From positions 1 through 64,000 of IMG/VR virus record IMGVR_UViG_2894097338_000001: 64,000 nucleotides of DNA. One strand, 5' to 3'. This DNA is from a virus (taxonomy: Duplodnaviria; Caudoviricetes). Positions 18,294-36,299 of this stretch are shown here, one piece after another (the stretch's first letter is position 1; every line of letters starts with the position of its first letter). The notes beneath the pieces were generated by a model. The model saw only the letters and a list, made by a program, of their open reading frames with translations. It was not told where the DNA came from and made no database searches. Made by a program: the position numbers and the translations under genes.

Positions 18294-21200
18294 ATGGCAA
18301 AAACCGTTGGAATTGATGTAAAAATTGACCTGCCTTCAAAATCAAAATTGGAGGCCGATCTTAAGAAAAAATGGAGTGGCATGAAGAATGACATTGACCT
18401 AAAAATCAATGTTCAAGCTGATAAAAACAGTCTTGCCAAAATGGGTTCACAGATAAATAACTACTTTAAAGGACGAGAGTTTGGAGTAGATATTAAAGTA
18501 GACTTAAAGAATGGTCAAAAGAAACTTCAAGAGTTTACGACTATGTACAAGGATTTCAGAAAAGAGTTTGAAAAAGGCTTAGAAATGAAATTCAATCCAA
18601 GTAAGACTTTAGATAAAAGTTTTCAAGAACTTGTTTCTGGGAAATCTCAAAAGCTTCATGAATCGCAGCAGAAAAACGGAGATTATATCAAAGCTTTAAT
18701 GAAAGATTCTGGCTCAATGAGTAAAGTGACTCAGCAGACAATTAAAGAACAAATCAAGACGGCAGATGATGCATTACATAATCTTGAAAAGGTAACTACT
18801 CAAGTAAATGCATTTAAAAAGGAAGTTAAGAGTTCTGTAGATGGAGAAGTTGTAAAAACCGACACATATACAGATAAGATTGCTGGTATCAAAGCTGTAA
18901 TTGATTACACTAAAGAGGTTGGAAGGCTTGAAAGAGATAACCTAACTGCTTCTAAAGAGGTAGTCGCAGCAAATAATAAAATCATCGAACTTAACAAGCG
19001 CGCCATTAATGGATTAAAACAGGATTATAAGAATACATTCGGCGAAGACATTACTAAAAATATGGAAGTTGCAAAAGCTGAGGCATCAGCTCAATCTAAT
19101 ATAGCTATTCAAAAGGCTTTAATCCAGAAAGAGCAACAGGCAGCCATAGATAAGCAGAGACAGGCGACATTAAGTGAAGTTGTTAAGCTTGAAAATGAAA
19201 TTTACGGACTTGCAAAGAAACAGCAGAGCGCTGGTTCAGATGAGAGCGCTGCTTATGATAAACAGATTGCAAAAGTTCGGGAAAAGAGCAATGCTCTAAA
19301 AATGCAAACTGGTATTATGAAAAATCTTACCAAAGAACAAAGAGCTGCTTATGACTCTCTTCGTGCTGATAATAAGTCGACACTGGACTTCAATAAATCT
19401 CTAATGAATGCCAAGAGTGCAGATAAAGCAAGAGTGAACGCTCAAAAGGCTGCACTTCAAGATATGAAGAGGGATTTAAAAGAAATTCAAAAACTTGAAC
19501 AAAAAGCCGACGATATTCGTGCAAAGAAAACAGTTGGTGGAGCAACGGTAAAAGAAAATGACAACCTCAGAATGCTTGAATCTGAGTTGGCTGTTCGCAA
19601 AAAGATATACGATCAAGAGCTAAAATCGCATAATAAAAAGGGTAACATCACAAAATCTGGAGACGCGGAACTTAAGTCTCTAGAGAAAAAGTATGATGCT
19701 ACCAAGAAAATAACTCAAGCTAGAGCGTCAGAAGAAGCCTCTATTCGAAAAGAACAAAATGCATTTAAGTCACTTGAAGCAAGTATTAAAAAAGTGTCTA
19801 GTCTTAAAAAGGATTTAGGTAAAGCTGGAACTAAAGAGTCTAGCTATATAAATGAGGTTATCAAAGGCGAAGAAGCTAAACAGGCTGCAATAGAGAAATC
19901 TATTACTGCTCAGAAAAAGTTCAACAAGGCTAAACTGGAAGAGGTACAAGCAACAAGAAAAGCCTCTTATGAAGAAGCTGAACAGTCGGCTACAAGAAGT
20001 CAACTTAGTGGACAAGATAGTAAGCAGGGTAAGAAGAAATTTAACTCTGTTGTAAACATTGATCCAATTCGAGTGGCTCAAACGGCCAAAAGAGCATTTA
20101 TGACTGTCTATGACAGCTTAGCGAAAGTTGACGAGCAGGTAGTTAATATTCAAAAGGTTGCTGATGTTCCTACAAAAGTGTTAAATGACTTTAATGCTGG
20201 GTTGTATGATCAAGCCGCAGCTGTCGGTAAGTCAGCTGATGAATATGCTGGATCGGTAGCAAGATGGTTAACGACTGGTAAGACACTTTCAGAGTCTAAC
20301 GAGCTTGCCAAAGTTTCGGTAATGGGTTCATTTGTAGGTAATATTGATGAAGAAGACATGGTTAATTATATGGCCGTTCCACTTAATGCTTATAAGGATA
20401 GTGCCCTGGAAGCCACAGATGTTATCAATGCAATGAACGAAGTTTCTAATAATAACGCCATAGAAATGGAACATCTTGGAGCTGCATACTCAAGAGCGGC
20501 AGCAACAGCATCGACCGCTGGAACTTCATTTGCACAACTTACTGGTATGATTACGGCAGGTCAAGAGTCAACAAGAGCTGGAGGAGAAAAAATCGGTACT
20601 GCCCTAAGAGCAATCGATATCAACTTCGGTAAAATGTCTTCTGGTATGACAAAGGCCGACAAAGAAAGAAGTGCCTGGTTTGCTAGCAAGGGTATTGCAT
20701 TAAAAGATGAGAATAACGAATTAAGATCAACATATGACATCTTAAGCGACTTGTCTTCTAAATGGGGAGAGCTTGATGGCGATGATAGAACAACAGCCAC
20801 AACGTATGCGGCAGGTAAAAACCACGCAGCGATCCTACAAGGTATTGTTAAGAACTGGGATGCAGCACAGAAAGCAACTGCCGAGGCTCAAGATCAAATC
20901 AATCTGGCAAATAAAGAGGGTGGATCTGCCTTCAAAGAGTTCGAGAGTCAACAAGATTCTATTCAGTACAAAACGGCTCAACTAACAGCAGAATGGCAGA
21001 AGTTCTTGCATACAATAGCTGGTGGTAGAGAGGGCGTTAATGGGGTTTTAGGAATCCTTACTGACGGCTTGGCAAAAGCCAATGAATTAGCATCTAATGA
21101 CCAGTTTATGGGATTTGTTAAAAATGCTTTAAAACTTGGTGGAGCCTATCTTGGATTGAAGATGGTTAACAAGGGATTTGGAGCAATTGGAGACACTATG

Positions 21201-24200
21201 GGCGGAGTCGTTGGAAACCTAAGCGTAATTTCTGGAATTATAGGTGGAGGAAAAGGCGGCAAGCTATTAGGAGCGTTCAGCAAAGGCGGAGGAAAAATGT
21301 TCGGCGGTATGGCGACTGGTCTTGGATCAGTAATCGGACTGTTCGGTAAATTTATACCTTTCCTAAATATTGCATTAATTGGAATGACTGCACTTCAAAT
21401 GGCTGGCGTTGATGTATTTGGAGGTATTGGACGTGCCATAAATGATATGGGCGGCAGCATGGCCAAGACAAAACGAAAAGTTTCCGAGTATAGAAAAGAG
21501 CAAGAAAAGCTTAACGAGGTCGTTAAGGATGGACTTGATTCTGCTAGAACATACAAAAAGGTTGAAGATACTAAAACTAATCTAGATAAGACCATTAAAG
21601 ACAAGCGTAAAAAACTGGAAGAGGAAACTAAGCTTGCAGAGCAAGAAGGAAGAGATAAGCCAGTTCAAAGAATCAGCTTCACAGAAGGTGAGTTTGAAGG
21701 ATACAAGAAACAAATCGAAGATCTTGCTGGTGAGTACGGACTTGATATCAAAGTTGATAGTAATAATATTGACGAGATTCTTGAAAAAATGGCGGAAGTT
21801 GAGCGATCAGCTAAGAGAATTAATGCTGAAAAAGGTAAAGAATTAAATAAAGCTGTTAAGAAGAGTACGAAGTATACTGGTAATGATATACTTTCTGAAC
21901 TTGACGAAAAACATGAGCTACCAATTGGGGCTGCCGAAGAACAGAAGAAGATTATCCAGGGCTGGAGTCAAGCTGTAAATGAAGGTACTATGACTTATGG
22001 CGAAATGGCCAAGAATGTAACTCAGATGATGCAGCAAAATCTATTTACGCCAGAGCAGCAGAAGTGGATGTCTCCAGAAGCAGCAAAGGTTGCCGAAGAG
22101 AATACTAAAAGGATGAACGACCTACTTGGTCAGAGGAGCGATTTAGTCGCAAGCGCAAAAGATAATGTGCTTCCTCCTGCTTTAAACAAAGAGTCTGTTA
22201 GACTAATGGCAACAGAACTTAGAAGTATTGATACTAGAAAAACTGCTTTAGAAGGTGTAAATAAAGTAATTGAAAATGGTGGAGTTCTATCAAAAGAACA
22301 GCACGAATTGATTAAAACACTAGATCCTGGAGGTAAATTCTTGTCAATTTCAAATGACACTGCGGCATGGGGTGAGAATACAGAAAATGTCAAGAAGTCA
22401 CTAGAGGGATTGAACGCCGAACTAGACAAGACTGGTGGAGCCGTCGAGAATAGCGTAAGAAAATACGCAAAAGAAAGTCTCGGATATACCGATGAAGAGA
22501 TAAATAATTTAGTAAACAGTATGCGAGGTGCAAAAGCCGCATATGTTGCAGAGCTAGCCACATGGGGTGACGAAGGAAAGTCTATACTTGGTGTAACTCA
22601 GAGATTCGCCGAAGAGACTGGAAATAACTGGGGGAAGGTTCTTGCAGATATGCAAGCCGACATAGATGGTCTATCTACAGCTGATAAGGAGCTGGCGATA
22701 AAATTCAACCTAGTTAAGGAAGACGGCTTTGTAAACATAGAAGAACTTGATAACTTCTATAACCTTCCAGAGTCCGTTGCCAAACAGTTTGAGTTGGTTG
22801 TTGAAGGAACTGGCGAAGTTGATATAGAAAAGGCCTTAGACTTTAGTCAAAAGCTAGCAGCTATAGACGACGCAGATTTATTCAAGAAAATAGACATAGA
22901 GGTTGACGGTGCGTCAGATGGAATATTAACAATTGACGAATTGGTTCAAAATATGGATAAACTGAGCGCTAACGAGATCATGAGCCTAATGATGAAACTG
23001 GAAGTAGATGAAACTGATGCATTATCTATTATACAGGAAATTACAGGGATGGAACTTAATCCGAAGGTTGTCGGAGATACATCTGGTATTAAGAACGACA
23101 TCATATCGGCCGCAGAGAACACTGAGGCTACAGCAAAAGTGAATGCGGAGATTGACAGTCGAACAACAAGTGGTTTGTCAACACAAATTACGGCAGCCCT
23201 AATGGATACGTCTGTTAAAATTCCAGTCGAACCAGAGGCTAAATTTGCCTTAGACTTTGCAAGCAAATTGAATATTGCTGCCACACCTCCGCCACCAATA
23301 AAAATTCCAGTTGGAGTTGACGGAGATCAAGCCGCAAGTGAATTACAGGGTGTTGTCGGAGTTATGGAGAGCTCAGCTGGCGAAGTTGAAGTTGTGGTTA
23401 CAGCAGACGGGCAAACAGCAGAAAGCACGCTTGCTAACATAGAAAAAAAAGCCGTCACAGTTGATGAGTCAGATCCAAATGTGCTTATCATGGCGGATGG
23501 AAGTAAGTTTTACACAGTCGCATCAAATGTTCAAACGCAAGTATCAACACTGGACGGAAAGGTTGTTAATATAACATTTAAGGGTGTCGAAGATGCTTCG
23601 TTAACATCGTTAAAAGCACTAGCTGCTTCTGGCGTTACAGTAAAAGGCAAAGGAAGTAAATCAATTGCTGCCTCCATAGGTCAAAGCATTGCATCATCAT
23701 TCTCTACTGGTGCACAGGCTGTAGGTCAAGCTGTCGAAGGTGCTAACAAGTCAATGTCCAAAGGATCTGGATCTAAAGGTAATCCTAGATATGCAAACGA
23801 CAAGATTAGTCAAGACGTTTGGAGATATTGGAGCAAAGAGCTATTTAACGGACTTCCAATCGAAAATTCTATGGAGAAACTAAAACATTCAATAGATGCC
23901 GCAAAAGATAATGAAACTAAACTTATCTCCCTTTATAAGCAACAAATTTCGTTGACACAGCAACAAATTAGACATAACGAAGATATGAAGAGAGCCAAAC
24001 AGGATGAAATGAATGCAATTCTTTCAGACTTGAGAAAGCAAGGATTCAAAACTAGCGGCAACAAGGTGACAAACCTAGGTCATGCGAAGAGTATAAAGGG
24101 CGAAGATGCTGTTACATTGGCTAATGAAAACCTTAATAAGTACAAAGATCTTTATAATCAAATCAACGACCTAAATAGTAAGATACTTAGCCTTCAACAC

Positions 24201-26579
24201 GACAAGACTAAGATAAACGATGACATTAAGTCAGCTGAGAAATCTAAAGAGGCAAAAGCTCTAGACGGTAGATTTAAGAAAACTGATGCATTACTAACGG
24301 CGATTAAGAACAATACGGATATATCAAACAAAAAGATATCTCTAATTGATGACGCTGATTTCGAGCTTAAACTTACAATGAACGAAGAAGGATTAAATAT
24401 GAGTAAGAATAGTATATCTCTTCTTACTGATGAGTTTAATTCTTTATCTAAAATGTATGTTAAGCACGATGAAAATGCGGAAAATGTCAAAGGCAAGCTA
24501 GAGGATCTTAAGACAGAGATATTAAATAATGCAGATGCTATTATAGAATATAACTCTAGAATAAAAGATATACAGATGGATAGATTAAACAGCGACCTAG
24601 ATAAATTCTCAAGCATCATGGAGAGAAATTTAGGTAAAGTAAAATCAAACATCGAAAACCTCAAAGAAGGCTTGATGAGCGACACATCATTTGGTGACCT
24701 TGGAACAGCAAGTTTTGACAAGCTTGACTTAAGTAGAAAGACAAAACTTGAGAAGCAGTTTGAAGAAAGACTCGCACTGGAAGCTAGATTGAATGAAGCC
24801 CTCGATGGATATTCTAAAAAGAACATCGATAGAACTGCAAAGGTATCTAATCAAGTACTTACAATTGAGAAGAATAAATATGATCAATTGTTGAAAATGC
24901 AGTCAGACTTCTCTAATGGCAAAGTATCAAAGGTAAATTCCATAAAACCTTCTGATGTCTTAGGAAAAACAAGCGTAGAGAAAGACGGAAGTTATACCGC
25001 ATGGACTAAATCATTAGAGAAGGTAAACAATGATTATACGAAGGCATATAGTCAAATGTCTAAAAGATACGATGAAGCTATTAAGAACGCCAAAACACAG
25101 GCGGAGAAGGACTCAATTACTCATGGCTTCATCGTAGAGCAACTAAAACTTCAAGAGGATATGTATCGTAAGATAATTCAAGTTAACAAGGAAGCTGCAG
25201 AGCAAGCCAATGAAATGTTAAATGATACAGGATTGACAACCTCTCAAAGAGAGTCACTTGAGGGATCATTAGCCGATTACCAGGATGCGATAACAGAAGC
25301 CCAAAACTCAATCAAGGAAGCAGTAAAAAGCAGATATGAATTAGAGTTCGATTTAATGGACAAGCTTGCTGAAAAGGCCTCAGATTACACGGAAGAGATT
25401 GAATACCTGTTATCTATACAAGAAGCCATAAGTAAAGACAACAGCGGTAAAACTGGTCTTCTAGAGGCAATTTACGAATCTAAAATAAATGAGTACGGCT
25501 CTGCCAGATCTAGTCTAGCTAAATTGCTTGAGGAGCAAAAGAAGGTTGGAGAAGGCAGCTATGAATGGAAGATTCTTCAAGATAGAATTGATGATGTTAG
25601 AGGAAGCTTGAAAGACCTAACAGTTGATATTTTAGAAGCTAATAAGGACTTGATGGAAAATCGTTTAGATGTTCTACAGGACGACATTGCAAAAGGCATG
25701 TTTGATGGAAAAACATTAAAACAATGGGAAAACTTCAAAGATAAATGGGTTACAGGGATTGAAAAAGAGTTAGAGCTCGACAAGGTTAGAAGAAGAGCAA
25801 TTGATTTAGAGAGTGATCTCTATGATAAAAAGCTTGAGGCGCTAGACAGACAGGAAGCTGTTTCTAAGAAAGATCTAGAGTATCTAGATAAACAATTGAC
25901 TGTATTAGAGCTTCAAGAAAAGCTGGATAACCTTAATAATGAGCGAGACGTTCAGACACTTGTTAGAAATGACGATGGTACGTGGGACTGGCAATATGTT
26001 GCTAATCAGACAGAAATCGACAAGGTAAAAGAGGACTTAGAAAAAGCAGAATTAGATTTGATTGACTTTAAAAACGATCAAAGAAAAGACTACTTCAAAG
26101 ATCTTTCTGATATCTTGGATCAAGCAAGGGATGGAGAATTTAGCTCTGAGGATGATTTAATGAATGCCTTAAATGACTTGAAAAAAGCATACGGCTTTGT
26201 ATTAGATGATATCCCTGGAATTGACACTGGAGACTTCGATGAAATTCTTAGAATTTACGGAGAGTACCTAAACAGTAATAAGGACATTATTTCTGGAATG
26301 GGTGACGGTGAAATAAGTAAAGAATATGAAGCACTTGTTGACAAGGTTGGCCTTAGATTTGAGGAAGGATTCAGAAATATTGCAGATGAACTTGGCAATA
26401 TCATATCAGAATCTCTTAAATCAGCTTTACAGTCGGCTGTAGTCAGCGAAGGAAATGGAAGCTATTTAATCGAACGTCAGATACTGGAATTTCCTAATGT
26501 TAAAGATACTGATGGGTTTAGAGAAGTTCTTGAAACATTACCAGCTGCAACTAAGCAGAAGATTCATGGCAAGGAATAA
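18294..26579 (+). CDS. Tail tape measure protein
   Basis: 2761 aa helical; TP901-type core (INAMNEVSNNNAI..GEKIGTALRAI), Gly-rich hydrophobic segment. Confidence 0.92.
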   Translation: MAKTVGIDVKIDLPSKSKLEADLKKKWSGMKNDIDLKINVQADKNSLAKMGSQINNYFKGREFGVDIKVDLKNGQKKLQEFTTMYKDFRKEFEKGLEMKFNPSKTLDKSFQELVSGKSQKLHESQQKNGDYIKALMKDSGSMSKVTQQTIKEQIKTADDALHNLEKVTTQVNAFKKEVKSSVDGEVVKTDTYTDKIAGIKAVIDYTKEVGRLERDNLTASKEVVAANNKIIELNKRAINGLKQDYKNTFGEDITKNMEVAKAEASAQSNIAIQKALIQKEQQAAIDKQRQATLSEVVKLENEIYGLAKKQQSAGSDESAAYDKQIAKVREKSNALKMQTGIMKNLTKEQRAAYDSLRADNKSTLDFNKSLMNAKSADKARVNAQKAALQDMKRDLKEIQKLEQKADDIRAKKTVGGATVKENDNLRMLESELAVRKKIYDQELKSHNKKGNITKSGDAELKSLEKKYDATKKITQARASEEASIRKEQNAFKSLEASIKKVSSLKKDLGKAGTKESSYINEVIKGEEAKQAAIEKSITAQKKFNKAKLEEVQATRKASYEEAEQSATRSQLSGQDSKQGKKKFNSVVNIDPIRVAQTAKRAFMTVYDSLAKVDEQVVNIQKVADVPTKVLNDFNAGLYDQAAAVGKSADEYAGSVARWLTTGKTLSESNELAKVSVMGSFVGNIDEEDMVNYMAVPLNAYKDSALEATDVINAMNEVSNNNAIEMEHLGAAYSRAAATASTAGTSFAQLTGMITAGQESTRAGGEKIGTALRAIDINFGKMSSGMTKADKERSAWFASKGIALKDENNELRSTYDILSDLSSKWGELDGDDRTTATTYAAGKNHAAILQGIVKNWDAAQKATAEAQDQINLANKEGGSAFKEFESQQDSIQYKTAQLTAEWQKFLHTIAGGREGVNGVLGILTDGLAKANELASNDQFMGFVKNALKLGGAYLGLKMVNKGFGAIGDTMGGVVGNLSVISGIIGGGKGGKLLGAFSKGGGKMFGGMATGLGSVIGLFGKFIPFLNIALIGMTALQMAGVDVFGGIGRAINDMGGSMAKTKRKVSEYRKEQEKLNEVVKDGLDSARTYKKVEDTKTNLDKTIKDKRKKLEEETKLAEQEGRDKPVQRISFTEGEFEGYKKQIEDLAGEYGLDIKVDSNNIDEILEKMAEVERSAKRINAEKGKELNKAVKKSTKYTGNDILSELDEKHELPIGAAEEQKKIIQGWSQAVNEGTMTYGEMAKNVTQMMQQNLFTPEQQKWMSPEAAKVAEENTKRMNDLLGQRSDLVASAKDNVLPPALNKESVRLMATELRSIDTRKTALEGVNKVIENGGVLSKEQHELIKTLDPGGKFLSISNDTAAWGENTENVKKSLEGLNAELDKTGGAVENSVRKYAKESLGYTDEEINNLVNSMRGAKAAYVAELATWGDEGKSILGVTQRFAEETGNNWGKVLADMQADIDGLSTADKELAIKFNLVKEDGFVNIEELDNFYNLPESVAKQFELVVEGTGEVDIEKALDFSQKLAAIDDADLFKKIDIEVDGASDGILTIDELVQNMDKLSANEIMSLMMKLEVDETDALSIIQEITGMELNPKVVGDTSGIKNDIISAAENTEATAKVNAEIDSRTTSGLSTQITAALMDTSVKIPVEPEAKFALDFASKLNIAATPPPPIKIPVGVDGDQAASELQGVVGVMESSAGEVEVVVTADGQTAESTLANIEKKAVTVDESDPNVLIMADGSKFYTVASNVQTQVSTLDGKVVNITFKGVEDASLTSLKALAASGVTVKGKGSKSIAASIGQSIASSFSTGAQAVGQAVEGANKSMSKGSGSKGNPRYANDKISQDVWRYWSKELFNGLPIENSMEKLKHSIDAAKDNETKLISLYKQQISLTQQQIRHNEDMKRAKQDEMNAILSDLRKQGFKTSGNKVTNLGHAKSIKGEDAVTLANENLNKYKDLYNQINDLNSKILSLQHDKTKINDDIKSAEKSKEAKALDGRFKKTDALLTAIKNNTDISNKKISLIDDADFELKLTMNEEGLNMSKNSISLLTDEFNSLSKMYVKHDENAENVKGKLEDLKTEILNNADAIIEYNSRIKDIQMDRLNSDLDKFSSIMERNLGKVKSNIENLKEGLMSDTSFGDLGTASFDKLDLSRKTKLEKQFEERLALEARLNEALDGYSKKNIDRTAKVSNQVLTIEKNKYDQLLKMQSDFSNGKVSKVNSIKPSDVLGKTSVEKDGSYTAWTKSLEKVNNDYTKAYSQMSKRYDEAIKNAKTQAEKDSITHGFIVEQLKLQEDMYRKIIQVNKEAAEQANEMLNDTGLTTSQRESLEGSLADYQDAITEAQNSIKEAVKSRYELEFDLMDKLAEKASDYTEEIEYLLSIQEAISKDNSGKTGLLEAIYESKINEYGSARSSLAKLLEEQKKVGEGSYEWKILQDRIDDVRGSLKDLTVDILEANKDLMENRLDVLQDDIAKGMFDGKTLKQWENFKDKWVTGIEKELELDKVRRRAIDLESDLYDKKLEALDRQEAVSKKDLEYLDKQLTVLELQEKLDNLNNERDVQTLVRNDDGTWDWQYVANQTEIDKVKEDLEKAELDLIDFKNDQRKDYFKDLSDILDQARDGEFSSEDDLMNALNDLKKAYGFVLDDIPGIDTGDFDEILRIYGEYLNSNKDIISGMGDGEISKEYEALVDKVGLRFEEGFRNIADELGNIISESLKSALQSAVVSEGNGSYLIERQILEFPNVKDTDGFREVLETLPAATKQKIHGKE

Positions 26580-26635: not shown

Positions 26636-27721
26636 ATGCAACCATATCTAAATCCAATAGCTAATTTTGATGCTAAAAACGATTATCAATTTACGTATTT
26701 GTATCTTGGATCTAGTCGGGTATTAAAAAACGAAGTAAAGATTAGGGAAGCTAAGGATGGCTCTGATCCAATATATAGTCGCATATCGACTAAGTTTGAC
26801 AAAAGTCACATCGTTCCAAAGGGATCTTTGGAGAACGGGAAAACGTATTGGGCTAGTATTAGAGTAGAAGTAGATGGTGAGTTTACGGAATGGTCTCCAG
26901 AGGTTTCGTTTTTATGTTTAGCCACTCCATCATTGAAGTTTGATAGTTTAGACAATGAGAACTATATTTTTAATGATGATATTATGATGCAGGTCATATA
27001 TCGCCAGGAGCAAGGCGAACGCATCGAAACATTTCAATTTACATTACTAGATCAAAACAAACAGGCTATAACGAAGTATCCAGTTAGGATTCCAGATACT
27101 ACCACACCAAATGTTTTACAAGAAAGAATGACCAACCTAGTAAAAGGTAGGCTGTACTACGTAGGTATCAGACTTAGAACCAAAAATGGAATCAACCATT
27201 ATGAAGATCATGAGTTTATACCACAGTTTATAACACCAGCACTTGAGGGTATTGTCGTAGCTGAGGCGCAGCCAGAAAATGGACAGGTTTTAGTTCAGTC
27301 TTACTTGAAACAACTTCTTGGAACGCAGGTTAAGCCATCTGTTCCTGGAATGGATATAGCGAATGACGTGGCTTACAGTTACTGGAAAGATGAATGGATT
27401 ATAATTCCAAAAGAAAAACCTTTGATGTATACAAGGTTAGGAATGGCAAAGGCCAGTGACTGGGTGGCAAAGGTTTGGTGCGAAAATATCCCTAATGGAG
27501 TAATGTTAGACTTCGCAAAAGAAGACAATGGTCATCCTCATATAAAATTCATAAAGCATGATGACTATATTACTTGTGAGAAGGAGCTTGGAGGAATTAA
27601 GTCTCGAACAAAATCAAATACTATCAAAAATCTTAAGCTTGGAAAATTCTACCTTTATATAAAGGTAATTGAGTACAGAGTTCAGATGACAATAGTACCT
27701 TATGAGGTGGATGAAATATGA
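26636..27721 (+). CDS. Baseplate/distal tail protein with FN3-like repeats
   Basis: 361 aa after TMP; LENGKTY and LVKGRLY FN3-like motifs. Confidence 0.6.
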   Translation: MQPYLNPIANFDAKNDYQFTYLYLGSSRVLKNEVKIREAKDGSDPIYSRISTKFDKSHIVPKGSLENGKTYWASIRVEVDGEFTEWSPEVSFLCLATPSLKFDSLDNENYIFNDDIMMQVIYRQEQGERIETFQFTLLDQNKQAITKYPVRIPDTTTPNVLQERMTNLVKGRLYYVGIRLRTKNGINHYEDHEFIPQFITPALEGIVVAEAQPENGQVLVQSYLKQLLGTQVKPSVPGMDIANDVAYSYWKDEWIIIPKEKPLMYTRLGMAKASDWVAKVWCENIPNGVMLDFAKEDNGHPHIKFIKHDDYITCEKELGGIKSRTKSNTIKNLKLGKFYLYIKVIEYRVQMTIVPYEVDEI

Positions 27722-28683
27722 TTATAGATTACAATTATTTCGGGGTAGGACTTCATGGAAATGTATTTGATACGGCAATTTCTACAGCTGAGCTTGACGA
27801 AGTCACGATGGGAGCTGGTCTATGGGACGAGTTATTTATCAGTGTTGACACTAAGATAGGTCAAGAAATGCTAAAACCTAAGCATTGGCAGCTAAAAACT
27901 ATCATGGATGCTAAATTCAAAGGAAGTTTGGAGGCTGGATCACTTGGAGCAGATGGACATGTCGTAACTAAGATACAGTTATATAGAAGGGATATAAACA
28001 AGACGAACGAGTGGCTTCTCGTTGGTATGTGGGATTATGATGAAGACTTTAACGTCTACTCATTCGTGGATAGATTGGCCGAGAATCAAGCAAACTACGA
28101 GTACGCGATCTTGCCAGTAGCTGACAAAATACTTGGAGATTTGACTCAGACTAACAAGTCTGTACGCGTAGAGTATGATGGGGTGTTTATATCAGATCTT
28201 CAAAATAACTTCAAAGTTGAGTACGATCTCAAGAAAGACACTGTGACACATGTTAAGAATTATTCAGAAATGCAAACTTTAAATGGAAGATACCCTATTG
28301 TTGTATCTGGAAACCAAAACTATAGAACTAGCAGTATGAGCTTCTTACCATTAACTGATGAGCAGATTAACTCAAGAGGAACAAAGATAAACGGTAGAAG
28401 TGAAAGAGAGTTGAGAGAGAGTATAGTTAATTTCCTTCAAAAAGGTGGAGCTAAGGTTATCAGAAATAGCAATGGTGATATGACAGTTGCTGCTGTGCAT
28501 TCTGTTACCGAAACACCAAGAGAGGGAAATCTAGAAGATCTTTCTGATATTTCTTTTAACTATGTAGAAATCGGAGAACTGGAATATGAAACAATGTCCA
28601 AAGGTGGATTAATTGGATCAGCTGGTAAGTCTAAGTATACATTCGATGAAGATGGGGAAATAATTTGGAACAATGGAGGATAA
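27718..28683 (+). CDS. Distal tail (Dit-like) protein
   Basis: 321 aa; TLNGRYP..NY.T, FL..K.IR..GD, ISFNYVEIG features. Confidence 0.6.
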   Translation: MIIDYNYFGVGLHGNVFDTAISTAELDEVTMGAGLWDELFISVDTKIGQEMLKPKHWQLKTIMDAKFKGSLEAGSLGADGHVVTKIQLYRRDINKTNEWLLVGMWDYDEDFNVYSFVDRLAENQANYEYAILPVADKILGDLTQTNKSVRVEYDGVFISDLQNNFKVEYDLKKDTVTHVKNYSEMQTLNGRYPIVVSGNQNYRTSSMSFLPLTDEQINSRGTKINGRSERELRESIVNFLQKGGAKVIRNSNGDMTVAAVHSVTETPREGNLEDLSDISFNYVEIGELEYETMSKGGLIGSAGKSKYTFDEDGEIIWNNGG

Positions 28684-28686
28684 TAC

Positions 28687-30804
28687 ATGAGCATGAGTCA
28701 CGACGAACCTGTACTATTAACAAAACAATATAAGGATCATACAATACCTAACGCTGTTGACAGTCTTAGGTATGAAGACCTTCCTTTTAATGCATATAGC
28801 GTGCACTCTCAGCCTATCAGAAACCTGGATGTTACAATCCAGGTTTTAGATGAGGCCACCGACACTGTATTGGAGACGGTATCTGGAAGGTGTGAAAGTG
28901 GAAACATAAGAGTAGAGAGCTCTTCATTAATTAGGAGAACTGGAAGTTTAGAGGTTCAATTTGATCCAGACTTCTTTCCTTCTGCAAGCAGCCTAGTATG
29001 GTTTGGAAGGATTTTTAGAGTATATGTAGGTATAAAAGATCTAAGTATGATTGATCATACAGTTAACTTCTTGCTTGGTACGTTTTATGCTGATAAAGCT
29101 GGAGTGTCTGTAGATGCTGCTACATCGAGTATAACAATTGGACTTGAGGATAAAATGGGAAGATTCGAGAGCGACGAGCTTGAGAACATGATTAAAATCT
29201 CTCCAGGAACGCCTATATCAGAAACCATTAGAAAAGTAATGGAGGATCTTGGCGAAACAAAATTTGGGTATATCCAGGAAAGCCTGCCATCTGAAACGGT
29301 TCCTTATACTATGGAATTTGGTATAGGGGAAGAAAAGATCGAGATAATTAGCAAGCTAAGAGATATGTATATGGACTATACATGTGGCTATAATACAAAA
29401 GGAGAATTTGAGTTTTACAAAATATCTGTACAAAAGGAAACTGAGTTTGAGCATCCAAAATGGTCATTTTCGAATGATGCGATAGATGGAAAAGACTTGA
29501 TGATAGAGTTCAAAGAGGATTACGTATTAAAAGACATAAGGAACAGAGTTCTTGTTGTCGGTGAAATGAGCGATAAAACTGGCATTACAGCCAATGGAGA
29601 AGTGAGGATAACTGATGCGAAGAATCCGTTTAATGTTGATGCTATAGGAACAAGAACTAAGGTTATCACAGAGTCTAAGTATGTCACAGATGATCAGTGT
29701 TACTCTAGAGCAAAATTTGAAATATGGAAAGTATCTAACTTCCAGGAGAAATGTGAAATATCTGCCGTTCCTATATATCTATTAGATGTTAACGATATTA
29801 TAGAGGTTCCAAACCCTATAACTGGTGTTAAATCAAGGTATTTAATAGACAGCTTTTCACTAGATCTAAAAGTAGATGGAAAAATGAGTATCTCAGCTCA
29901 TAAACTATATTATACTGGCGTAGAGTACGGAGAAGCGTTCAAACCTCTTGTCAATGCCTTTATGGTAGGTATTAATAATTATGGCTGGTTATCTCTTGCG
30001 GAAGAGAGAATTAAAGATGTGTTTAATATTAGCGGAAGTGGGAATGCTACTATTGTAGTTAGGTTTGTGGATATGGAGCTTGGAGGAGAGCAAGCCAGTG
30101 TTACTTCTTACGGAACAACTAAAAATCAAACACTTCAAATAGATTTAGCAGACTTTAGCAAGCTTGACTTTGAAAGCGAAAGTGGAGCAAACGGAAGAAG
30201 TGAGGCTGATTATGCAGACAGAGTTTTAGGACATGAAATGTTTCATGCCGTTACGAACGATTACCTTGGCCATGATACGATGTTAGATATACCTATATGG
30301 TTTAAAGAAGGGTTTGCAGAGTTTTTACATGGTGGAAAAGATCGATATAAATTAGCATATCCAAAGGTCGAAAAGTCCAAGAAAAAAAGTCAACTAATCG
30401 AATTAGCTGAAAAACAATTGAATGGATTGTTTGAGGGATCAAGCGAAGATTATGTGGCAGCGTATCTAATAGCTATCGCAATTTATAATTTGTGTGATAG
30501 TAAAATGTGGAGTGGAATCATTACTAATCTTAGAGGCATTAAGAATCCAGGAATAAACTTCTTGTATAAGCTTCTACCGATTGCTGACGATAACGACAAA
30601 GTTAAATCATTGGTTATGAATGAGATAAGAACAATGGATAAGGTTTGGAATCTACTAGATGATGAGTCGGATAAAGATACTATGTCTGTTGGGGGTGTAC
30701 ATTTTATGAATCTATATGGAGTTCCGCTAACTGCAGAAACAGTGTTTAATAATTCTAATGCCACAACAGATTCCATCGGATTTAAAATAAAAAAAGATAA
30801 TTAA
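28687..30804 (+). CDS. Baseplate hub (DUF5048-like) fused to zinc metallopeptidase
   Basis: N-terminal hub (RRT.SL, L.DKM, IRNRVLVVG, P.Y.LDVND.I); C-terminal HEMFH (30232-30246) plus WFKEGFAEF. Confidence 0.75.
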   Translation: MSMSHDEPVLLTKQYKDHTIPNAVDSLRYEDLPFNAYSVHSQPIRNLDVTIQVLDEATDTVLETVSGRCESGNIRVESSSLIRRTGSLEVQFDPDFFPSASSLVWFGRIFRVYVGIKDLSMIDHTVNFLLGTFYADKAGVSVDAATSSITIGLEDKMGRFESDELENMIKISPGTPISETIRKVMEDLGETKFGYIQESLPSETVPYTMEFGIGEEKIEIISKLRDMYMDYTCGYNTKGEFEFYKISVQKETEFEHPKWSFSNDAIDGKDLMIEFKEDYVLKDIRNRVLVVGEMSDKTGITANGEVRITDAKNPFNVDAIGTRTKVITESKYVTDDQCYSRAKFEIWKVSNFQEKCEISAVPIYLLDVNDIIEVPNPITGVKSRYLIDSFSLDLKVDGKMSISAHKLYYTGVEYGEAFKPLVNAFMVGINNYGWLSLAEERIKDVFNISGSGNATIVVRFVDMELGGEQASVTSYGTTKNQTLQIDLADFSKLDFESESGANGRSEADYADRVLGHEMFHAVTNDYLGHDTMLDIPIWFKEGFAEFLHGGKDRYKLAYPKVEKSKKKSQLIELAEKQLNGLFEGSSEDYVAAYLIAIAIYNLCDSKMWSGIITNLRGIKNPGINFLYKLLPIADDNDKVKSLVMNEIRTMDKVWNLLDDESDKDTMSVGGVHFMNLYGVPLTAETVFNNSNATTDSIGFKIKKDN

Positions 30805-30873: not shown

Positions 30874-31593
30874 ATGGTAAGTAGAAGCAAGTTTCCAGAG
30901 GGTGTCGATGAGTTTACAGAGCTTTTCGATCTACCTTATGACAAATTAAAGTCAGCTCAAAGATTGACTCAGCTTAAGATTCAACCTAAGTTGACGAATG
31001 ACGAGCAAAACGAGTTAGCTACACTTTCTGCAGAATTAGAGGAATATATGATTACTCCAGAAGTGTGGAACAAGTTTGCCGACTCTTTGGTGGCAGTTGA
31101 ACAGTTCTTTTATGATAATGTTCAAGGGTTCATTGAGGACAAGCAAAAAATCTGGGACTCTTATATCAAGCAGTTTCTATTTGTCGGAGTTTGGACTACA
31201 GGAAAGTCTTATAAATTCCAAAATATGGTAATTGGTGATAATGGAGATCTATTTTTATGCAGCAAGGATCATGTATCTAATGATTCTAACAAGCCTACAA
31301 AATCAGATATGTGGGTTAGAATATCTTCGAAAGGAGATACTGGAGCGATTGGTTTAAACGCATTCTACAAAGGTGACTGGAATGAAGCCACTACCTATAA
31401 AATAGGTGATGCAGTAAGTCATGAGAGAGAGAACTGGTTAAAACCTCTAGTCTATATCTCAAAAAAAGATAATAACGTTGGTGTAAACCCTCAAACTAAT
31501 GGTGAGAGTTGGATGTTATATTCTGAAACATATGTTGGAGATAGTAGGCCAAAAGGAGCAGGTGCAGGATTGCACTTTATCAAAGAATTGTAG
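30874..31593 (+). CDS. Baseplate/fibre protein with CBM5/12-like repeats
   Basis: S.FPE.VD.F start; G.W....Y..GD.V repeats. Confidence 0.6.
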   Translation: MVSRSKFPEGVDEFTELFDLPYDKLKSAQRLTQLKIQPKLTNDEQNELATLSAELEEYMITPEVWNKFADSLVAVEQFFYDNVQGFIEDKQKIWDSYIKQFLFVGVWTTGKSYKFQNMVIGDNGDLFLCSKDHVSNDSNKPTKSDMWVRISSKGDTGAIGLNAFYKGDWNEATTYKIGDAVSHERENWLKPLVYISKKDNNVGVNPQTNGESWMLYSETYVGDSRPKGAGAGLHFIKEL

Positions 31594-31604
31594 GAGTGAA
31601 TTAA

Positions 31605-32000
31605 ATGAATAATTCAGAGGCACAAAAGGTGTTACTCCAGGCGATGCAAGATATCGTAGATGCAACAATTTCTAAAGTTTCAACGACTAACTCAGTTATT
31701 GGCGCGGTCGTTGAAATGCCGAAAGGCTATGATATCAAAGTTGAGATTAATGGACAGCTTCACGAATGCTTACTACCAGAAAATCTGCACTCATGGATTC
31801 AAAAGGATGACATTGTTATCATCCAGGACTTGTATAATGATGGTAGAAAAATGGTTGTAACTGGCAAAACTGGAGCTATTCAAAGATCTCCTTCATTAGT
31901 TTTCTCGAATGAAGAGTCTGGAAAGTTAGTTAGCGGTGTAGATGGGGCATTTGAAAATGGGAAACGCCTGGACGCTAATCTTACTGTAGAAGGAGAGTAA
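31605..32000 (+). CDS. Small tail protein (OB-fold-like)
   Basis: 131 aa in tail tip cluster. Confidence 0.5.
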   Translation: MNNSEAQKVLLQAMQDIVDATISKVSTTNSVIGAVVEMPKGYDIKVEINGQLHECLLPENLHSWIQKDDIVIIQDLYNDGRKMVVTGKTGAIQRSPSLVFSNEESGKLVSGVDGAFENGKRLDANLTVEGE

Positions 32001-32003
32001 TAA

Positions 32004-33320
32004 ATGGTTAACATTAAAAATGCAGCATACGACGTTACTGGAAAAGTTGAACAAGAAGACGTCAGATATCATTTCCAAACAAACGCAGGTATGCTAACAG
32101 TTCTCGATGAGAAGAATGAAATCGTCGGCAATCTATCAGACCTATTAATGAAGGGTATTCCATTAGATGGCGTAGATTATAAGACTTTAAAGCTAAAAGG
32201 ATTGTATGGTATTACTAATATCAAAGGTATAGATCCTGGGTTGAAAATAGAGGTTAATAAAATGAGCCTTTTATCAGTCACTCCTTATGGAGAAATCAAC
32301 AATCCAAAAATTGTGGTCTATAAATTAATCACATCTGATGGACGAGTTTTTGACAATGTAATGAATGACGGAAAAGAAGTCGGATGGACATCTGGCGGGA
32401 AAGAGTTAGAAGCTACGTTGACAGAAATCAAAAATGTAACTGGTAGTATCGATGATTTAAAGACTACTAACAAAGATAGTTTAGCATCGGCAATAAATGA
32501 AGTTCATGATGCCTCTAGGAAAAATAAAGAAGCTCTCAAAAAGCACGAAGAGGACTACGCGGAGTTTAAAAAGCACAATCATGATGATCATTACATAAAG
32601 CGATCTGGTGGTAATATCAAAGGAACCATAAGTATTGATAATAACGTTGATGTAAATGCCAAAAATGCTAGAAATGAAGAGGTTCGAGTAGCACATGTTT
32701 CAGCAACAGATCTTTTTAGTTTAGGTAATAAGAAGCTTGGACTTGATTTACTTGGTAATGGAGACTTTAAATACAATGGAAAAAAAGTTTGGACTGAGGT
32801 CAATCATGGAAAAGATAGCGGTTTAGATGCCGATAAAATCGGTGGTGTAAGCTATAAAAAAATACCGATACTCGATAGTTCTAATACGTTTGAGGAAAAT
32901 ATCACTATTAAGAAGTCTTTAATTGCCAAGGATTTTAAGCTTGGAGAAAAGGCTAATATCTCAGCAGATGACAATGGTCGAATCACAATTAAAACAGGCG
33001 GCCTTAATACTGTGGCGTTTGAAACAAATGGACAGATGACAGCAATGAATCATATTCTAATGAATGCCAAGAACAACGAAGTTGGCTTTAAGTTAGCATT
33101 AGATAATGACGAAGTTGGTAAAGGTATGGGATTCTATAGAAACGGTGGAAGTAGGTATCTTGGTGTTTACAATTGGAGTAAAGGTAAGCGACTTGCGTAT
33201 TTTAGCGACACCGATGAAAGACTCTATCTCGATCAATCTATTTCTATTCAAGGAAGAAAACTATATTTACAAAGTGGTCAGCCACCAGTCGGTAAGGCTG
33301 GAGATATCTGGATTAAGTAA
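32004..33320 (+). CDS. Tail fibre protein
   Basis: LKTTNKDSLASAINEV, HNHDDHY, N.G..SGLDADK.GG fibre motifs. Confidence 0.75.
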   Translation: MVNIKNAAYDVTGKVEQEDVRYHFQTNAGMLTVLDEKNEIVGNLSDLLMKGIPLDGVDYKTLKLKGLYGITNIKGIDPGLKIEVNKMSLLSVTPYGEINNPKIVVYKLITSDGRVFDNVMNDGKEVGWTSGGKELEATLTEIKNVTGSIDDLKTTNKDSLASAINEVHDASRKNKEALKKHEEDYAEFKKHNHDDHYIKRSGGNIKGTISIDNNVDVNAKNARNEEVRVAHVSATDLFSLGNKKLGLDLLGNGDFKYNGKKVWTEVNHGKDSGLDADKIGGVSYKKIPILDSSNTFEENITIKKSLIAKDFKLGEKANISADDNGRITIKTGGLNTVAFETNGQMTAMNHILMNAKNNEVGFKLALDNDEVGKGMGFYRNGGSRYLGVYNWSKGKRLAYFSDTDERLYLDQSISIQGRKLYLQSGQPPVGKAGDIWIK

Positions 33321-33332
33321 GGAGGTTGACTA

Positions 33333-33995
33333 ATGGCAGGTATTTATAGAAGTGATGGTAAGAAATGGCATGAAACCACCGACGTTTTTAGAAGTGACGG
33401 TAAAAGGTGGATTAAAGCAGAAGTTATGAGAAGTAACGGAAAAGGTTTTAGTAAGATAAGCGAGCAAAGATACGTTAAAACATTTGAGTGTACCTGGAGT
33501 CAAAGTTATGGTGGCTCTGGAACACAGAAACCAAACTGGCTTGGTGGCAATACAATTTGTCACCAAGGTCGATATGGAGCTCCTTATACGGCGGAATATG
33601 ATTGGGGTATTCAAAAATCCATGATTGGATTTGATCATGCGGCAATCAGAAGAGAGTTAGCTGGTGCCAGGATAGAAAAAGTTGAAGTATATCTTAGAAA
33701 TGAACATTTCTGGTACTTTGCTGGAGGATATTCCGTACTTGGTTATCATAACTCGGCAAGTAGGCCTAATACGTTTCAGTATACAAAAAACCAAGTTAGA
33801 AAAGATTACTACAAAGGTCGTGGAGAAGCTAAATGGTTAGTAATGCCGAATGAGCTTGGCAATTTATTAAGAGACAACAAGGCGAAAGGGTTAATACTCT
33901 ATGCGCCAACAACTATTCTAGATTATTATGGGTACTTTTATGGTGCGGGCGGTGGATCTAGTCGTCCGAAAATAAGAATCACCTATGTAAAATAA
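33333..33995 (+). CDS. Tail fibre tip/receptor-binding protein
   Basis: RSDGK.W repeats then globular domain ending PKIRITY. Confidence 0.6.
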   Translation: MAGIYRSDGKKWHETTDVFRSDGKRWIKAEVMRSNGKGFSKISEQRYVKTFECTWSQSYGGSGTQKPNWLGGNTICHQGRYGAPYTAEYDWGIQKSMIGFDHAAIRRELAGARIEKVEVYLRNEHFWYFAGGYSVLGYHNSASRPNTFQYTKNQVRKDYYKGRGEAKWLVMPNELGNLLRDNKAKGLILYAPTTILDYYGYFYGAGGGSSRPKIRITYVK

Positions 33996-34010: not shown

Positions 34011-34370
34011 TTGAAAATGATTCAAATTCAAGAAGCAGTAGTAAATTTAGTAGTAGCAGGAGTTGTAGGTGTAATCACCTATGCAGCGCAACGTGTAGGA
34101 TCATATTTTAACGCTAAAGGAATTGACAAAAAACTTAATTCTAAGAGAGCGTCAATTGACATTGCAGTTAACGCGGTTGAGCAGATTGCTAAAAATGAAG
34201 GAATCGACAACAAGTTCGAAGAAGCTAAAGATCAAGCTATTGAGATTTTACGCGCCAATGGTCTTAAAATTTCAGAAGTAGAGCTTAACGCTATGATCGA
34301 GGACTCTGTTGCGGCAATGAAAAATGGATACGTAGCTGGTTTAAATAAAAACGAAATGGGGGTGGCATAA
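34011..34370 (+). CDS. Holin (LL-H-like)
   Basis: One N-terminal TM, AVNAVEQ..K.EEA..IE..V..MK pattern, upstream of lysin. Confidence 0.8.
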   Translation: MKMIQIQEAVVNLVVAGVVGVITYAAQRVGSYFNAKGIDKKLNSKRASIDIAVNAVEQIAKNEGIDNKFEEAKDQAIEILRANGLKISEVELNAMIEDSVAAMKNGYVAGLNKNEMGVA

Positions 34371-34371
34371 T

Positions 34372-34590
34372 ATGTTTGAAATTAATGACATCGTAACACC
34401 TGTCGACTTACAAAAGGTTTTAGATGACAAGTATCTATCACCTCGTAGCAAAGCTATCATCGAAGAAAGCAGCAATAAGGCAGTCGTTAATCAAATTCAA
34501 GATGGTTTAATCTATGTTAGTTATTTCAATACGGCTGGGGACGATCGTATTACACAGGTTTACAAACCAGAAGAATTAAAATTAGTCTAA
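34372..34590 (+). CDS. Hypothetical protein (SH3-like)
   Basis: 72 aa, F..NDIV ... Y.PEELKLV. Confidence 0.6.
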   Translation: MFEINDIVTPVDLQKVLDDKYLSPRSKAIIEESSNKAVVNQIQDGLIYVSYFNTAGDDRITQVYKPEELKLV

Positions 34591-34649
34591 GGGTATAAGG
34601 TGAAATAGGGAACTTCTTTCAAATAAAAATTCGAAAGAGGTAATATTGA

Positions 34650-35780
34650 ATGGCAAATTGGAATGGAGTTCCTTACAAAGCACAACTAGTAGCATCAAGT
34701 AAATGGGGTACAAAATGTCCCTACGCATTAAACGCAAAGAAAATCACAATCCACAACACGGATAATAGCGCTACAGCTCAAAATGAAGCAGATTATCATA
34801 ACGGAAACTGGAATGAAACATCGTTTCATATCGCTGTAGATGACGTTCAAGCAGTGCAGGTTATTCCTTTTAATCGTAATGCTTGGGCTTCTGGTGATGG
34901 TGGTAATGGGTACGGTAATAGAAACACGATTCATATTGAAATCTGTAAAAACTATGACCGAAACCGTAATACAACTAACTTACTTGCTGGACAACAATCT
35001 CAGTATGTAAAAGCAGAAGCAAATGCAGTGAAAATTGCTGCAGCAATTATGGTTCAAGAAGGAATTGCAGCTCATCCAGATAACGTTAAGCGTCACTATG
35101 ACTGGAACGGTAAATGGTGTCCTTCTAAGATTCTTAATGAAGGAAGATGGAACACGGTACGTGCTTTAATCGTTGCAGAAACTCAAAGATTGAGCGGAAA
35201 ACCTGTTACACCAGCACCAAAACCAACTGCTCCTAAACCTGTAGCACCGTCTACTGGATTAAAACGTGGAACGATTGCTAAATGGGCTACTCATTATCAA
35301 ACTGGTCAAAAAATCAGCCCGTTTGTAATTGGAAAAGCTTACAATATTATTCAAACTAAAAATGTAAGTCAATCTAAAAGTAAGAAAGCTTACCTAATGG
35401 CAGGGATTATGAGTTGGGTATTAGAGCAGGATCTTGTTGAATCTGGCATTAACATTGCAGCCAAACCGTCAACTCCAGCACCAAAACCAGCTGTAACTGA
35501 TCGTTGGATTTCTAAAAAGGGGACAGCAGTAATTACAACTCCAGTTGGAATTAAATTACGAGGAACATCTTCTGGAGATCATGCAAATCCAATTAATCTT
35601 GGTCAACTAGCCCTACTTCCAAAAGGTAGTTCAGTTGTTTATGACAAGATTCTTGTTCAAAAAAATGGACATGTTTGGGTTAGACAACCAAGAAGTGGCG
35701 GATATGGATGGATGCCAGTATCTGATACTAAAAATGGTGTTGCAACTGGCGGTTACTGGGTGTCTGGTGTTTCAATCTAG
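34650..35780 (+). CDS. Endolysin, N-acetylmuramoyl-L-alanine amidase with two cell-wall-binding domains
   Basis: ITIHNT, SFHIAVDD, IEIC, H..W.GK.CP motifs; two PAPKP linkers; C-terminal SH3-like GHVWV. Confidence 0.92.
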   Translation: MANWNGVPYKAQLVASSKWGTKCPYALNAKKITIHNTDNSATAQNEADYHNGNWNETSFHIAVDDVQAVQVIPFNRNAWASGDGGNGYGNRNTIHIEICKNYDRNRNTTNLLAGQQSQYVKAEANAVKIAAAIMVQEGIAAHPDNVKRHYDWNGKWCPSKILNEGRWNTVRALIVAETQRLSGKPVTPAPKPTAPKPVAPSTGLKRGTIAKWATHYQTGQKISPFVIGKAYNIIQTKNVSQSKSKKAYLMAGIMSWVLEQDLVESGINIAAKPSTPAPKPAVTDRWISKKGTAVITTPVGIKLRGTSSGDHANPINLGQLALLPKGSSVVYDKILVQKNGHVWVRQPRSGGYGWMPVSDTKNGVATGGYWVSGVSI

Positions 35781-35925: not shown

Positions 35926-36002
35926 GAGAACATAGAAAATTTAATTTGCGGCTGGGATTGTCTGTTGAGTTTTCTGAATATCTTAAGGAACGAGGTTTTT
36001 TA

Positions 36003-36191: not shown

Positions 36192-36299
36192 TAATTATTT
36201 AAACGTGTTATGTAAACCAAGTATGATATCAAAATCTAAATATTGGGTTAAAATGCTTATTATATAGGTGTTTTACCCCTCTTTTATTTTTTTAAAACT

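Follow-up and report, generated by a model that had tools for sequence, protein, structure and literature searches.

Introduction

Why would a phage tail protein end in a predicted zinc protease whose nearest relatives are built into bacterial flagella? The question is raised by one gene in the window analyzed here, the 64,000 nucleotides (nt) at positions 1 to 64,000 of IMG/VR virus record IMGVR_UViG_2894097338_000001 (Caudoviricetes), with which a contig of 122,341 bp begins. The gene (28687..30804, + strand) is an uninterrupted open reading frame (ORF) of 705 amino acids (aa), preceded, by direct reading, by the ribosome-binding site GGAGGA (28675..28680, +), 6 nt 5′ of the ATG. It joins an N-terminal tail module (residues 1–414; 28687..29928, +), delimited with PHROG 1887, hhalign, and Atlas models, to a flagellinolysin-type gluzincin peptidase domain (residues 415–705; 29929..30801, +), delimited with the model NF033876, a profile, and an Atlas model. 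An initial annotation of this DNA had called the protein a baseplate hub fused to such a peptidase and had started the feature at 29930, which is one base beyond the codon boundary; residue 415 begins at 29929. As judged from sequence, the C-terminal ~290 aa form a gluzincin domain, and flagellinolysins are its closest relatives beyond its own family.

Homology of the C-Terminal Domain

The NCBIfam flagellinolysin model, NF033876, matches residues 432–695 with an E-value of 2.9e-31 and 109.3 bits for the domain alone. The whole 705-aa protein scores 106.1 bits, below the curated equivalog cut-off of 205 bits. Of the 384 profile positions, the match spans 51–309, the part that models the inserted peptidase; the score stays under the cut-off because the flagellin ends are absent and the peptidase insert aligns alone. 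With the flagellin parts missing, the protein therefore lies outside the flagellinolysin equivalog. Neither Flagellin_N (PF00669, searched at E ≤ 1) nor Flagellin_C (PF00700) gives a Pfam match in the 705-aa protein, and clan-level Pfam signals in the C-terminal domain are weak (Peptidase_MA_2, E 0.011; Peptidase_M9, E 0.083). PF01752 (Peptidase_M9) reaches 12.6 bits against a gathering cut-off of 26, over domain residues 102–144 only; because this score is under the cut-off, the protein is also placed outside the M9 family.

A phmmer search of 1.84 billion representatives returned 184 matches at E ≤ 1e-3, 32 at E ≤ 1e-10, and 11 at E ≤ 1e-30, the top tier being ~700-aa proteins of the same architecture. 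Among the 10 nearest matches that are not fusions, nine carry Flagellin_N by Pfam and eight of these also carry Flagellin_C; the remaining one is an RTX-repeat protein. True flagellin relatives score between 1e-32 and 1e-49 on Flagellin_N. Three Bacillales relatives are flagellins by Pfam, and identity to Bacillales flagellins is 33–40%. The 150 listed matches were sorted with a flagellin N-terminal profile built from 11 Pfam-confirmed sequences, giving 106 flagellin-type, 10 tail-type, and 34 other proteins, mostly fragments. Candidates for stand-alone or split forms of the domain are seven short matches; six of them lie on contigs of ≤2.2 kb and are probably fragments, and one, of 286 aa, lies on an 8.4-kb contig. 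A profile of the window's domain aligns with approximately positions 5–290 of the flagellin inserts at E-values from 1e-75 to 1e-20, and the homology therefore extends across the whole domain, beyond the zinc site.

A predicted structure agrees with this assignment. The ESM Atlas model of the 705-aa protein has a mean predicted local distance difference test (pLDDT) value of 0.76, and its residues 415–705 superpose on a Flagellin_N/C cluster with a template-modeling (TM) score of 0.78 over 270 residues. Scores against flagellin clusters carrying Peptidase_M9 are 0.68–0.74, and those against Peptidase_MA_2 clusters are ~0.6. The likeness to flagellinolysin proposed in the initial annotation is borne out by the NF033876 match and by the flagellins that make up the nearest outside relatives. 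A sequence search of the PDB with the C-terminal domain gave no match at E ≤ 1, and the full-family profile found nothing credible there, its best hit being a designed helical protein (E 0.002). A set of 50,697 cultured-phage records gave neither a match at the DNA level nor, with the C-terminal domain, a tblastn match at E ≤ 1e-5.

Active Site and Its Conservation

All six motif strings listed in the initial annotation are found in the ORF, between residues 434 and 670: WLSLAEERIKDVF (434–446), LQIDLADF (483–490), YADRVLGHEMFHAV (509–522), IPIWFKEGFAEFLHGGKDR (535–553), DYVAAY (588–593), and DTMSVGG (664–670). They include H516-E-M-F-H520 (30232..30246, +), the predicted zinc-binding His pair and catalytic Glu, which is conserved in 129/129 domains, and E541-G-F-A-E545 (30307..30321, +), in which alignment assigns E541 as the third zinc ligand and A544 as the hydrophobic basement. 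The HExxH with a downstream Glu, read from the outset as the gluzincin signature, is therefore present as HEMFH (516–520) plus E541, and it aligns with the flagellinolysin motifs. Upstream of the active site, D486-L-A-D489 (30142..30153, +) supplies candidate calcium-site aspartates, as suggested by alignment conservation.

The domain alignment comprises 129 domains (40 from tail proteins, 79 from flagellins, and 10 others). H516, E517, H520, E541, and Y589 are invariant in all 129, and G542, A544, E545, G549, R512, W538, D486, D489, and D664 are almost so. All 40 tail domains keep D486 and D489, which are present in 64/79 and 65/79 flagellin domains, respectively. When three Bacillus gaemokensis M9 collagenases are added, their HEFTH aligns with HEMFH and their WFEEGNAEF with WFKEGFAEF. 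E541 falls on the second Glu of WFEEGNAEF, 28 residues past the second His in all three M9 enzymes, and we take this M9 Glu to be a zinc ligand, as in ColG. Because of this alignment, E541 is assigned as the third zinc ligand typical of gluzincins. A544 takes the place of the basement alanine, and the ExxA spacing is that of Glu262/Ala265 of FliA(H), in which excerpts of the flagellinolysin study give Ala as the basement residue (Eckhard 2017, PMC5595980). The same excerpts place the flagellinolysin calcium-site Asp 27 residues before the first His, and D489 has this spacing.

Conservation extends through the fusion family. There are 149 proteins with both halves, and the peptidase domain is found in 149/149 relatives carrying the N-terminal tail module. 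The active site is covered in 144, and HExxH plus E(G/S)xAE is kept in every one of these. A strict active-site pattern fits 141/144, and the other three deviate only at the aromatic position before the Glu. From its sequence, the domain is thus predicted to be a catalytically competent zinc endopeptidase of the flagellinolysin type, in clan MA(E) and distantly related to M9, and it is probably calcium-stabilized. The inserts of the flagellinolysins from Clostridium haemolyticum and Hylemonella gracilis are described in excerpts of their primary reports as active Zn/Ca-dependent endopeptidases of broad, matrix metalloproteinase (MMP)-like specificity, which prefer a large hydrophobic P1′ residue and lose activity upon the E234A substitution (PMC5595980, PMC7643111). 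Type I collagen was not cleaved and native collagen was spared, according to the portion of PMC5595980 on substrates (Eckhard 2017).

N-Terminal Tail Module

Residues 45–404 match PHROG 1887, annotated as tail protein, with an E-value of 4e-43. Within this region, residues 314–407 (29626..29907, +) match DUF5048 (PF16467) with an E-value of 4.6e-11 and 43.2 bits, against a gathering cut-off of 32.3. By hhalign, residues 42–402 align with gp45 (396 aa) of Geobacillus virus E3 (GVE3) with a probability of 99.6% and an E-value of 8e-24, and gp36 (386 aa) of Thomasclavelia phage TR-TP1 is also a homologue of the N-module (23.5% identity by tblastn). A tblastn search of the N-module against the 50,697 cultured-phage records gave six remote matches only. 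In the Atlas, the N-module has TM scores of 0.76–0.79 to viral proteins of 375–464 aa.

In other phages, the bare N-module is a stand-alone protein of ~390–400 aa. In GVE3, which has been described as a siphovirus with a 210-nm noncontractile tail, and in TR-TP1, it is encoded by the second gene after a large gene in the tape-measure position. N-module-only homologues of 390–502 aa occur in 5/401 sampled genomes of the host's class, and an Atlas cluster contains a 908-aa N-module relative that bears Ig-like domains in place of the peptidase. Because bare and Ig-like forms both exist, the C-terminus of this tail protein appears to be a spot where extra domains get added.

The term baseplate hub, used in the initial annotation, goes further than the sequence shows. 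The protein is a conserved tail protein encoded in a tail-tip gene block; it has no hhalign likeness to canonical hubs. Alignment of the N-module with TP901-1 Tal, p2 ORF16, and 80alpha gp59 gave probabilities of ≤0.2%, which is weak evidence given that the targets were single sequences.

Tail-Tip Gene Block

The fusion is the third gene after that for a 2761-aa tape measure protein (18294..26579, +; phrog_4211, E 2.9e-46; PF10145), whose length implies a very long tail and in which neither Pfam nor a search of PDB sequences detected a lysin domain. Two conserved tail-tip genes (26636..28683, +) lie between them; their products have 361 aa, with no family match in Pfam or PHROG, and 321 aa, with a match to phrog_27355. 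Downstream are four tail-tip genes (30874..33995, +) for proteins of 239, 131, 438, and 220 aa, the first of which is tail-fiber-like (phrog_26419, E 3.3e-30) with a weak CBM5/12 match. The lysis genes follow (34011..35780, +), namely, a holin and then an Amidase_2 plus SH3_5 endolysin. PDB sequence searches with the 361-, 321-, 438-, and 239-aa neighbors gave nothing credible.

The eight-gene order of tape measure, 361, 321, fusion, 239, 131, 438, and 220 recurs as a collinear block across 35 related loci. Both fusion domains are present in 35/35 and the 321-aa gene in 34/35; the genes for the tape measure and for the 361-, 239-, and 131-aa proteins are collinear in 33/35, the 438-aa gene in 32/35, and the 220-aa gene in 31/35, with missing genes mostly at contig ends. 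The fusion is the third gene after the tape measure in 33/35 loci, as it is in the window. A tail location for the protein is supported by its PHROG tail match and by this collinear block. The terminase, portal, holin, and endolysin genes on the same contig mark a real phage, with a complete complement of genes for virion and lysis.

Several other features of this region were noted. An 857-aa tail protein (4742–7315, +) carries CBM_4_9 and matches, over its C-terminal stretch, a PHROG family with the annotation glycerophosphodiester phosphodiesterase. A tyrosine-recombinase/integrase-like ORF (17205–18269, +; PF00589, phrog_1) lies directly upstream of the tape measure gene, and an insertion-sequence-type transposase (13559–14776, −; phrog_2199, E 4e-88) lies on the opposite strand within the tail gene region. 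At window positions 36000–42000, the G+C fraction drops to 0.29–0.31 and the cumulative GC skew peaks; this segment separates the rightward structural and lysis genes from the leftward replication genes.

The Element, Its Relatives, and Their Annotation

In addition to the tail and lysis genes, the 122,341-bp contig encodes a terminase large subunit, a portal, a DNA polymerase, helicases, and a ligase, as well as a ParA-like partition gene and a replication-initiator-like gene (contig piece L124, 5769–8602 and 16115–19390; piece L122). The terminase and portal genes lie near the far end of the contig and run on into the head and tail genes of the window. The element looks like a circular phage-plasmid and is probably a temperate, long-tailed phage of ~122 kb that persists as a circular plasmid-like prophage. 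Its DNA polymerase gene seems to be split or interrupted, with a mobile intron, an endonuclease gene, or an intein as possible causes: phrog_405 is matched over positions 751–1068 by the window ORF 62758–63939 (−) and over positions 42–746 by L122 1252–3357 (−), and a 336-aa ORF (L122 166–1176, −) lies between the two.

Relatives of the fusion gene are found on 11 PLSDB records of 108–148 kb, all typed as nonmobilizable, from Vagococcus fluvialis, Limosilactobacillus reuteri and mucosae, Ligilactobacillus salivarius, Bacillus wiedmannii, and B. velezensis. The two records inspected are closed circles. A further 33 IMG/VR contigs, of ≤145 kb, also carry relatives, and the hosts of the relatives are Lactobacillales and Bacillus. 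In the portion of PMC9413892 that concerns them, 135-kb V. fluvialis circles are called a presumed excised prophage, with the fusion gene not discussed, and sharp GC-skew transitions are noted in this 135-kb relative. On the B. velezensis plasmid pBvelV314_2, a Pycsar effector and cyclase gene, an anti-phage defense, was observed just after the lysis genes (piece L127, 11955–12837).

In the host's own family, the window's genome is the only one among 36 species to carry the gene, as befits a sporadic element, and sampling of 400 further genomes from the host's class turned up no full fusion. The fusion is nevertheless not a one-off, in that it defines a phage lineage present in the databases and largely mislabeled as flagellin. 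In the 11 plasmid records, the gene is annotated as flagellin in five, as DUF5048 in one, and as hypothetical in five. RefSeq and UniRef relatives named flagellin come from Vagococcus, Enterococcus mundtii, Aerococcaceae, Limosilactobacillus reuteri, Liquorilactobacillus, Ligilactobacillus salivarius, and Streptococcus suis. Of these carriers, Enterococcus mundtii, Limosilactobacillus reuteri, Ligilactobacillus salivarius, Streptococcus suis, and Aerococcaceae belong to groups not known to be motile. The window's host genome, which is 99.68% complete, has no Flagellin_N match, and since the host lacks a flagellin gene, the RefSeq name is wrong. The flagellinolysin-like domain is the likely cause of the mislabeling.

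Evolution of the Domain

The two halves of the fusion have a mean pairwise identity of 45% each, and their identities are correlated with a Pearson r of 0.89 over 703 pairs (38 sequences). The halves thus appear to have diverged in step, which fits one old fusion kept under selection. A tree of the domain was computed from 129 rows, each covering at least 230 profile positions, and 281 columns with a quick IQ-TREE search under LG+G4. Tail rows were limited to the 38 of one alignment plus later additions, which lessens redundancy. All 40 tail domains form one clade (SH-aLRT 99). Its neighbors are the three Bacillales flagellins (support 81), and both lie inside a group that takes in six further flagellins (support 97), four of which are in clusters with members named flagellinolysin of Clostridia by NCBI.

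Midpoint rooting and three free searches with an M9 outgroup put the root among other flagellins; the outgroup branch was very long in these quick searches. For a 55-row set, a tree joining the tail and M9 rows, and thereby rooting the family on the tail stem, had a log-likelihood 35.6 above that of the free quick tree and was not rejected by the approximately unbiased (AU) test (p-AU 0.918). Because the AU result runs counter to the free quick trees, we make no claim on the direction of transfer. That the tail-borne domain is the source, or the sister of the source, of the protease inserted in flagellin is a speculative possibility that we consider rather doubtful. If it is true, a tail-tip protease of Bacillota phages gave rise to proteolytic flagella, and phages were the vehicle of the module's wide lateral spread.

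Proposed Function and Alternative Explanations

What might such a domain do on a tail? On balance, we lean slightly toward a virion-borne tail-tip protease that acts on host envelope or matrix proteins. Residues 1–414 would be an assembly module that builds the protein into the distal tail, and residues 415–705 would display the protease on the tail end, much as flagellin does on the filament. The protein would then be present in virions, probably in several copies at the distal end. The protease would be active and would cleave host envelope or matrix proteins during adsorption and penetration, before DNA delivery, so that cleavage opens a way to the wall or membrane. Elsewhere among phages of Gram-positive bacteria, wall-hydrolase domains at the C-terminus of tail-tip proteins do the counterpart job. 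Pfam searches of 21 tail-region proteins detected no further enzyme domain besides the endolysin, although such a blank does not exclude wall-degrading activity. A lone Pfam-visible tail enzyme is consistent with the protease being the envelope-opening activity of the tail, without proving so. As to the claim of the initial annotation that the protease replaces the usual peptidoglycan hydrolase, Pfam sees no wall hydrolase in these proteins other than the endolysin, but such a blank falls short of showing absence. Its suggestion that surface or biofilm proteins are cut is likewise an inference.

Several points weigh against the proposal of a protein-cleaving tail tip. Since the N-module has no likeness to canonical hubs, placement at the tip rests on gene order. 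The 857-aa tail protein may be a second envelope-directed activity or binding module. Finally, the hosts of the lineage (Vagococcus, Enterococcus, Limosilactobacillus, Ligilactobacillus, Dolosigranulum, Streptococcus, and Bacillus) have no obvious common surface protein, and a universal substrate such as wall peptides therefore fits at least as well. This last point leads directly to the alternative that the domain is a peptidoglycan endopeptidase, which cuts stem peptides or cross-bridges and replaces the M23, CHAP, or NlpC/P60 domain of tail lysins. Wall hydrolases usually occupy the C-terminus of tail-tip proteins, which is where this domain lies, and every host of the lineage would offer wall peptides as a substrate. 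In the tail module, another wall hydrolase was detected neither by Pfam nor by a PDB sequence search of the tape measure, and the highlights of an enterococcal survey name endopeptidases as the most frequent tail lysins (PMC10194240). However, the two studied flagellinolysins act on ordinary L-peptides and favor a large P1′ residue, hydrophobic or aromatic, of a kind that wall peptides lack. Activity on peptidoglycan is not known for any enzyme that is related to M9 or of the flagellinolysin type. A wall-directed role is thus unlikely, if still to be taken seriously.

It is less probable still that the protease acts on the phage itself, by processing the tape measure or another tail protein at assembly or ejection, or by removing itself. 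Other siphophages are known to process their tape measures and tail-tip proteins by proteolysis, and the gene lies third after that of the 2761-aa tape measure. Relatives of the N-module nevertheless build tails without a protease, as in GVE3 gp45, TR-TP1 gp36, and the five of 401 sampled genomes, and the nearest relatives of the domain are outward-facing extracellular enzymes, either in flagella or in proteins that are RTX/Ig adhesin-like or lectin plus S-layer-like. Another reading makes the domain a binding module, an adhesin or receptor binder in which catalysis is irrelevant or lost; distal tail proteins often bear binding domains at this position, and the 908-aa Atlas relative has Ig-like domains there. 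Retention of the catalytic and metal residues in 144/144 proteins, at 25–87% pairwise domain identity, would be unexpected for a pure binder and makes this reading highly improbable. The suggestion that the protein is a flagellin has in its favor the name that RefSeq and UniRef apply to many relatives, and we give it almost no credence. Flagellin_N and Flagellin_C are absent by Pfam, the NF033876 scores of 106–109 bits compare with a cut-off of 205, the host genome has no Flagellin_N, and the gene lies between the tape measure and lysis genes. A true flagellin is refuted by the domain tests.

Significance

No publication describing a flagellinolysin-type peptidase on a phage tail was found in a literature search whose scope excluded the supplementary tables of PMC9413892 and PMC10194240, in agreement with the statement of the initial annotation that no such description was known. 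The primary flagellinolysin papers PMC5595980 and PMC7643111 never mention phage, and the enterococcal tail-lysin survey (PMC10194240) mentions neither flagellin, metalloprotease, metallopeptidase, collagenase, nor zinc. The literature search also returned no paper on DUF5048. The novelty lies in the combination of a known kind of fusion, that of an enzyme to a tail-tip protein, with a new class of enzyme.

Known tail-borne phage enzymes are polysaccharide depolymerases and wall hydrolases, and a conserved endopeptidase of broad type on the tail end would add protein barriers to the targets of virions. If the proposed function is correct, surface, matrix, or exclusion proteins are candidates for such barriers, and research on Gram-positive biofilms would gain a new type of phage-derived enzyme. 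One mobile protease module connects the flagellum with the phage tail, both of them extracellular nanomachines, and the origin of flagellinolysin becomes a directly testable question. The analysis also corrects an annotation error, the name flagellin in Enterococcus, Limosilactobacillus, Dolosigranulum, Streptococcus suis, and the window's host, which may affect genome papers that count flagellin genes, and it marks a barely described lineage of 108–148-kb circular prophage-plasmids in lactic acid bacteria and Bacillus.

Comparison with Known Systems

The closest counterparts are the flagellinolysins FliA(H) of Clostridium haemolyticum and HgrFlaMP of Hylemonella gracilis, which have the same peptidase domain over the whole ~290 aa. 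The likeness includes HExxH, the third Glu, the ExxA basement, the calcium-site Asp, and R512, W538, Y589, Y593, D664-T665, and G670. In the flagellinolysins, the enzyme is displayed on an extracellular polymeric organelle, and in the phage protein it would be as well. The phage protein differs from the two flagellinolysins in lacking the flagellin D0/D1 helices, in carrying the peptidase at its C-terminus rather than as an insert, and in having a tail protein as its carrier; moreover, the tail versions form a clade of their own (SH-aLRT 99), and the host has no flagellin gene. The M9 collagenases ColG, ColH, and ColQ1 share the gluzincin active site and are matched by the profile at E-values from 9e-7 to 2e-4. 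They are remote, as the phage protein falls below the PF01752 cut-off and has no Pfam-detected activator or accessory domains.

With respect to architecture, the fusion resembles the siphophage Tal proteins of TP901-1 and Tuc2009, in which a tail-tip N-terminal module is followed by a C-terminal enzyme, an M23 peptidase, and which are encoded close behind the genes for the tape measure and the distal tail protein; the fusion gene stands third after its tape measure. The N-module of the fusion has no detectable sequence likeness to TP901-1 Tal, p2 ORF16, or 80alpha gp59, and the protein has no demonstrable place among the canonical Tal proteins. The phage enzyme is a predicted gluzincin protease that belongs to no known wall hydrolase family. 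GVE3 gp45 and TR-TP1 gp36, annotated as tail protein and DUF5047/DUF5048-like, correspond to residues ~42–402 and have a similar gene block; unlike the window's protein, gp45 (396 aa) and gp36 (386 aa) stop where the peptidase begins, and their genes are second rather than third after the large gene. A C-terminal gluzincin on a phage-tail-like puncturing device is also found in VgrG2b, an evolved spike of the type VI secretion system of Pseudomonas aeruginosa. According to excerpts of the report on VgrG2b, its thermolysin-like zinc metallopeptidase acts in the target cell envelope, and changing the HExxH Glu to Ala abolishes the effect (Wood et al. 2019, PMC6899460). In contrast to the phage protein, VgrG2b has a DUF4157 peptidase, belongs to a contractile secretion system of Gram-negative bacteria, and is a toxin with a cognate immunity protein.

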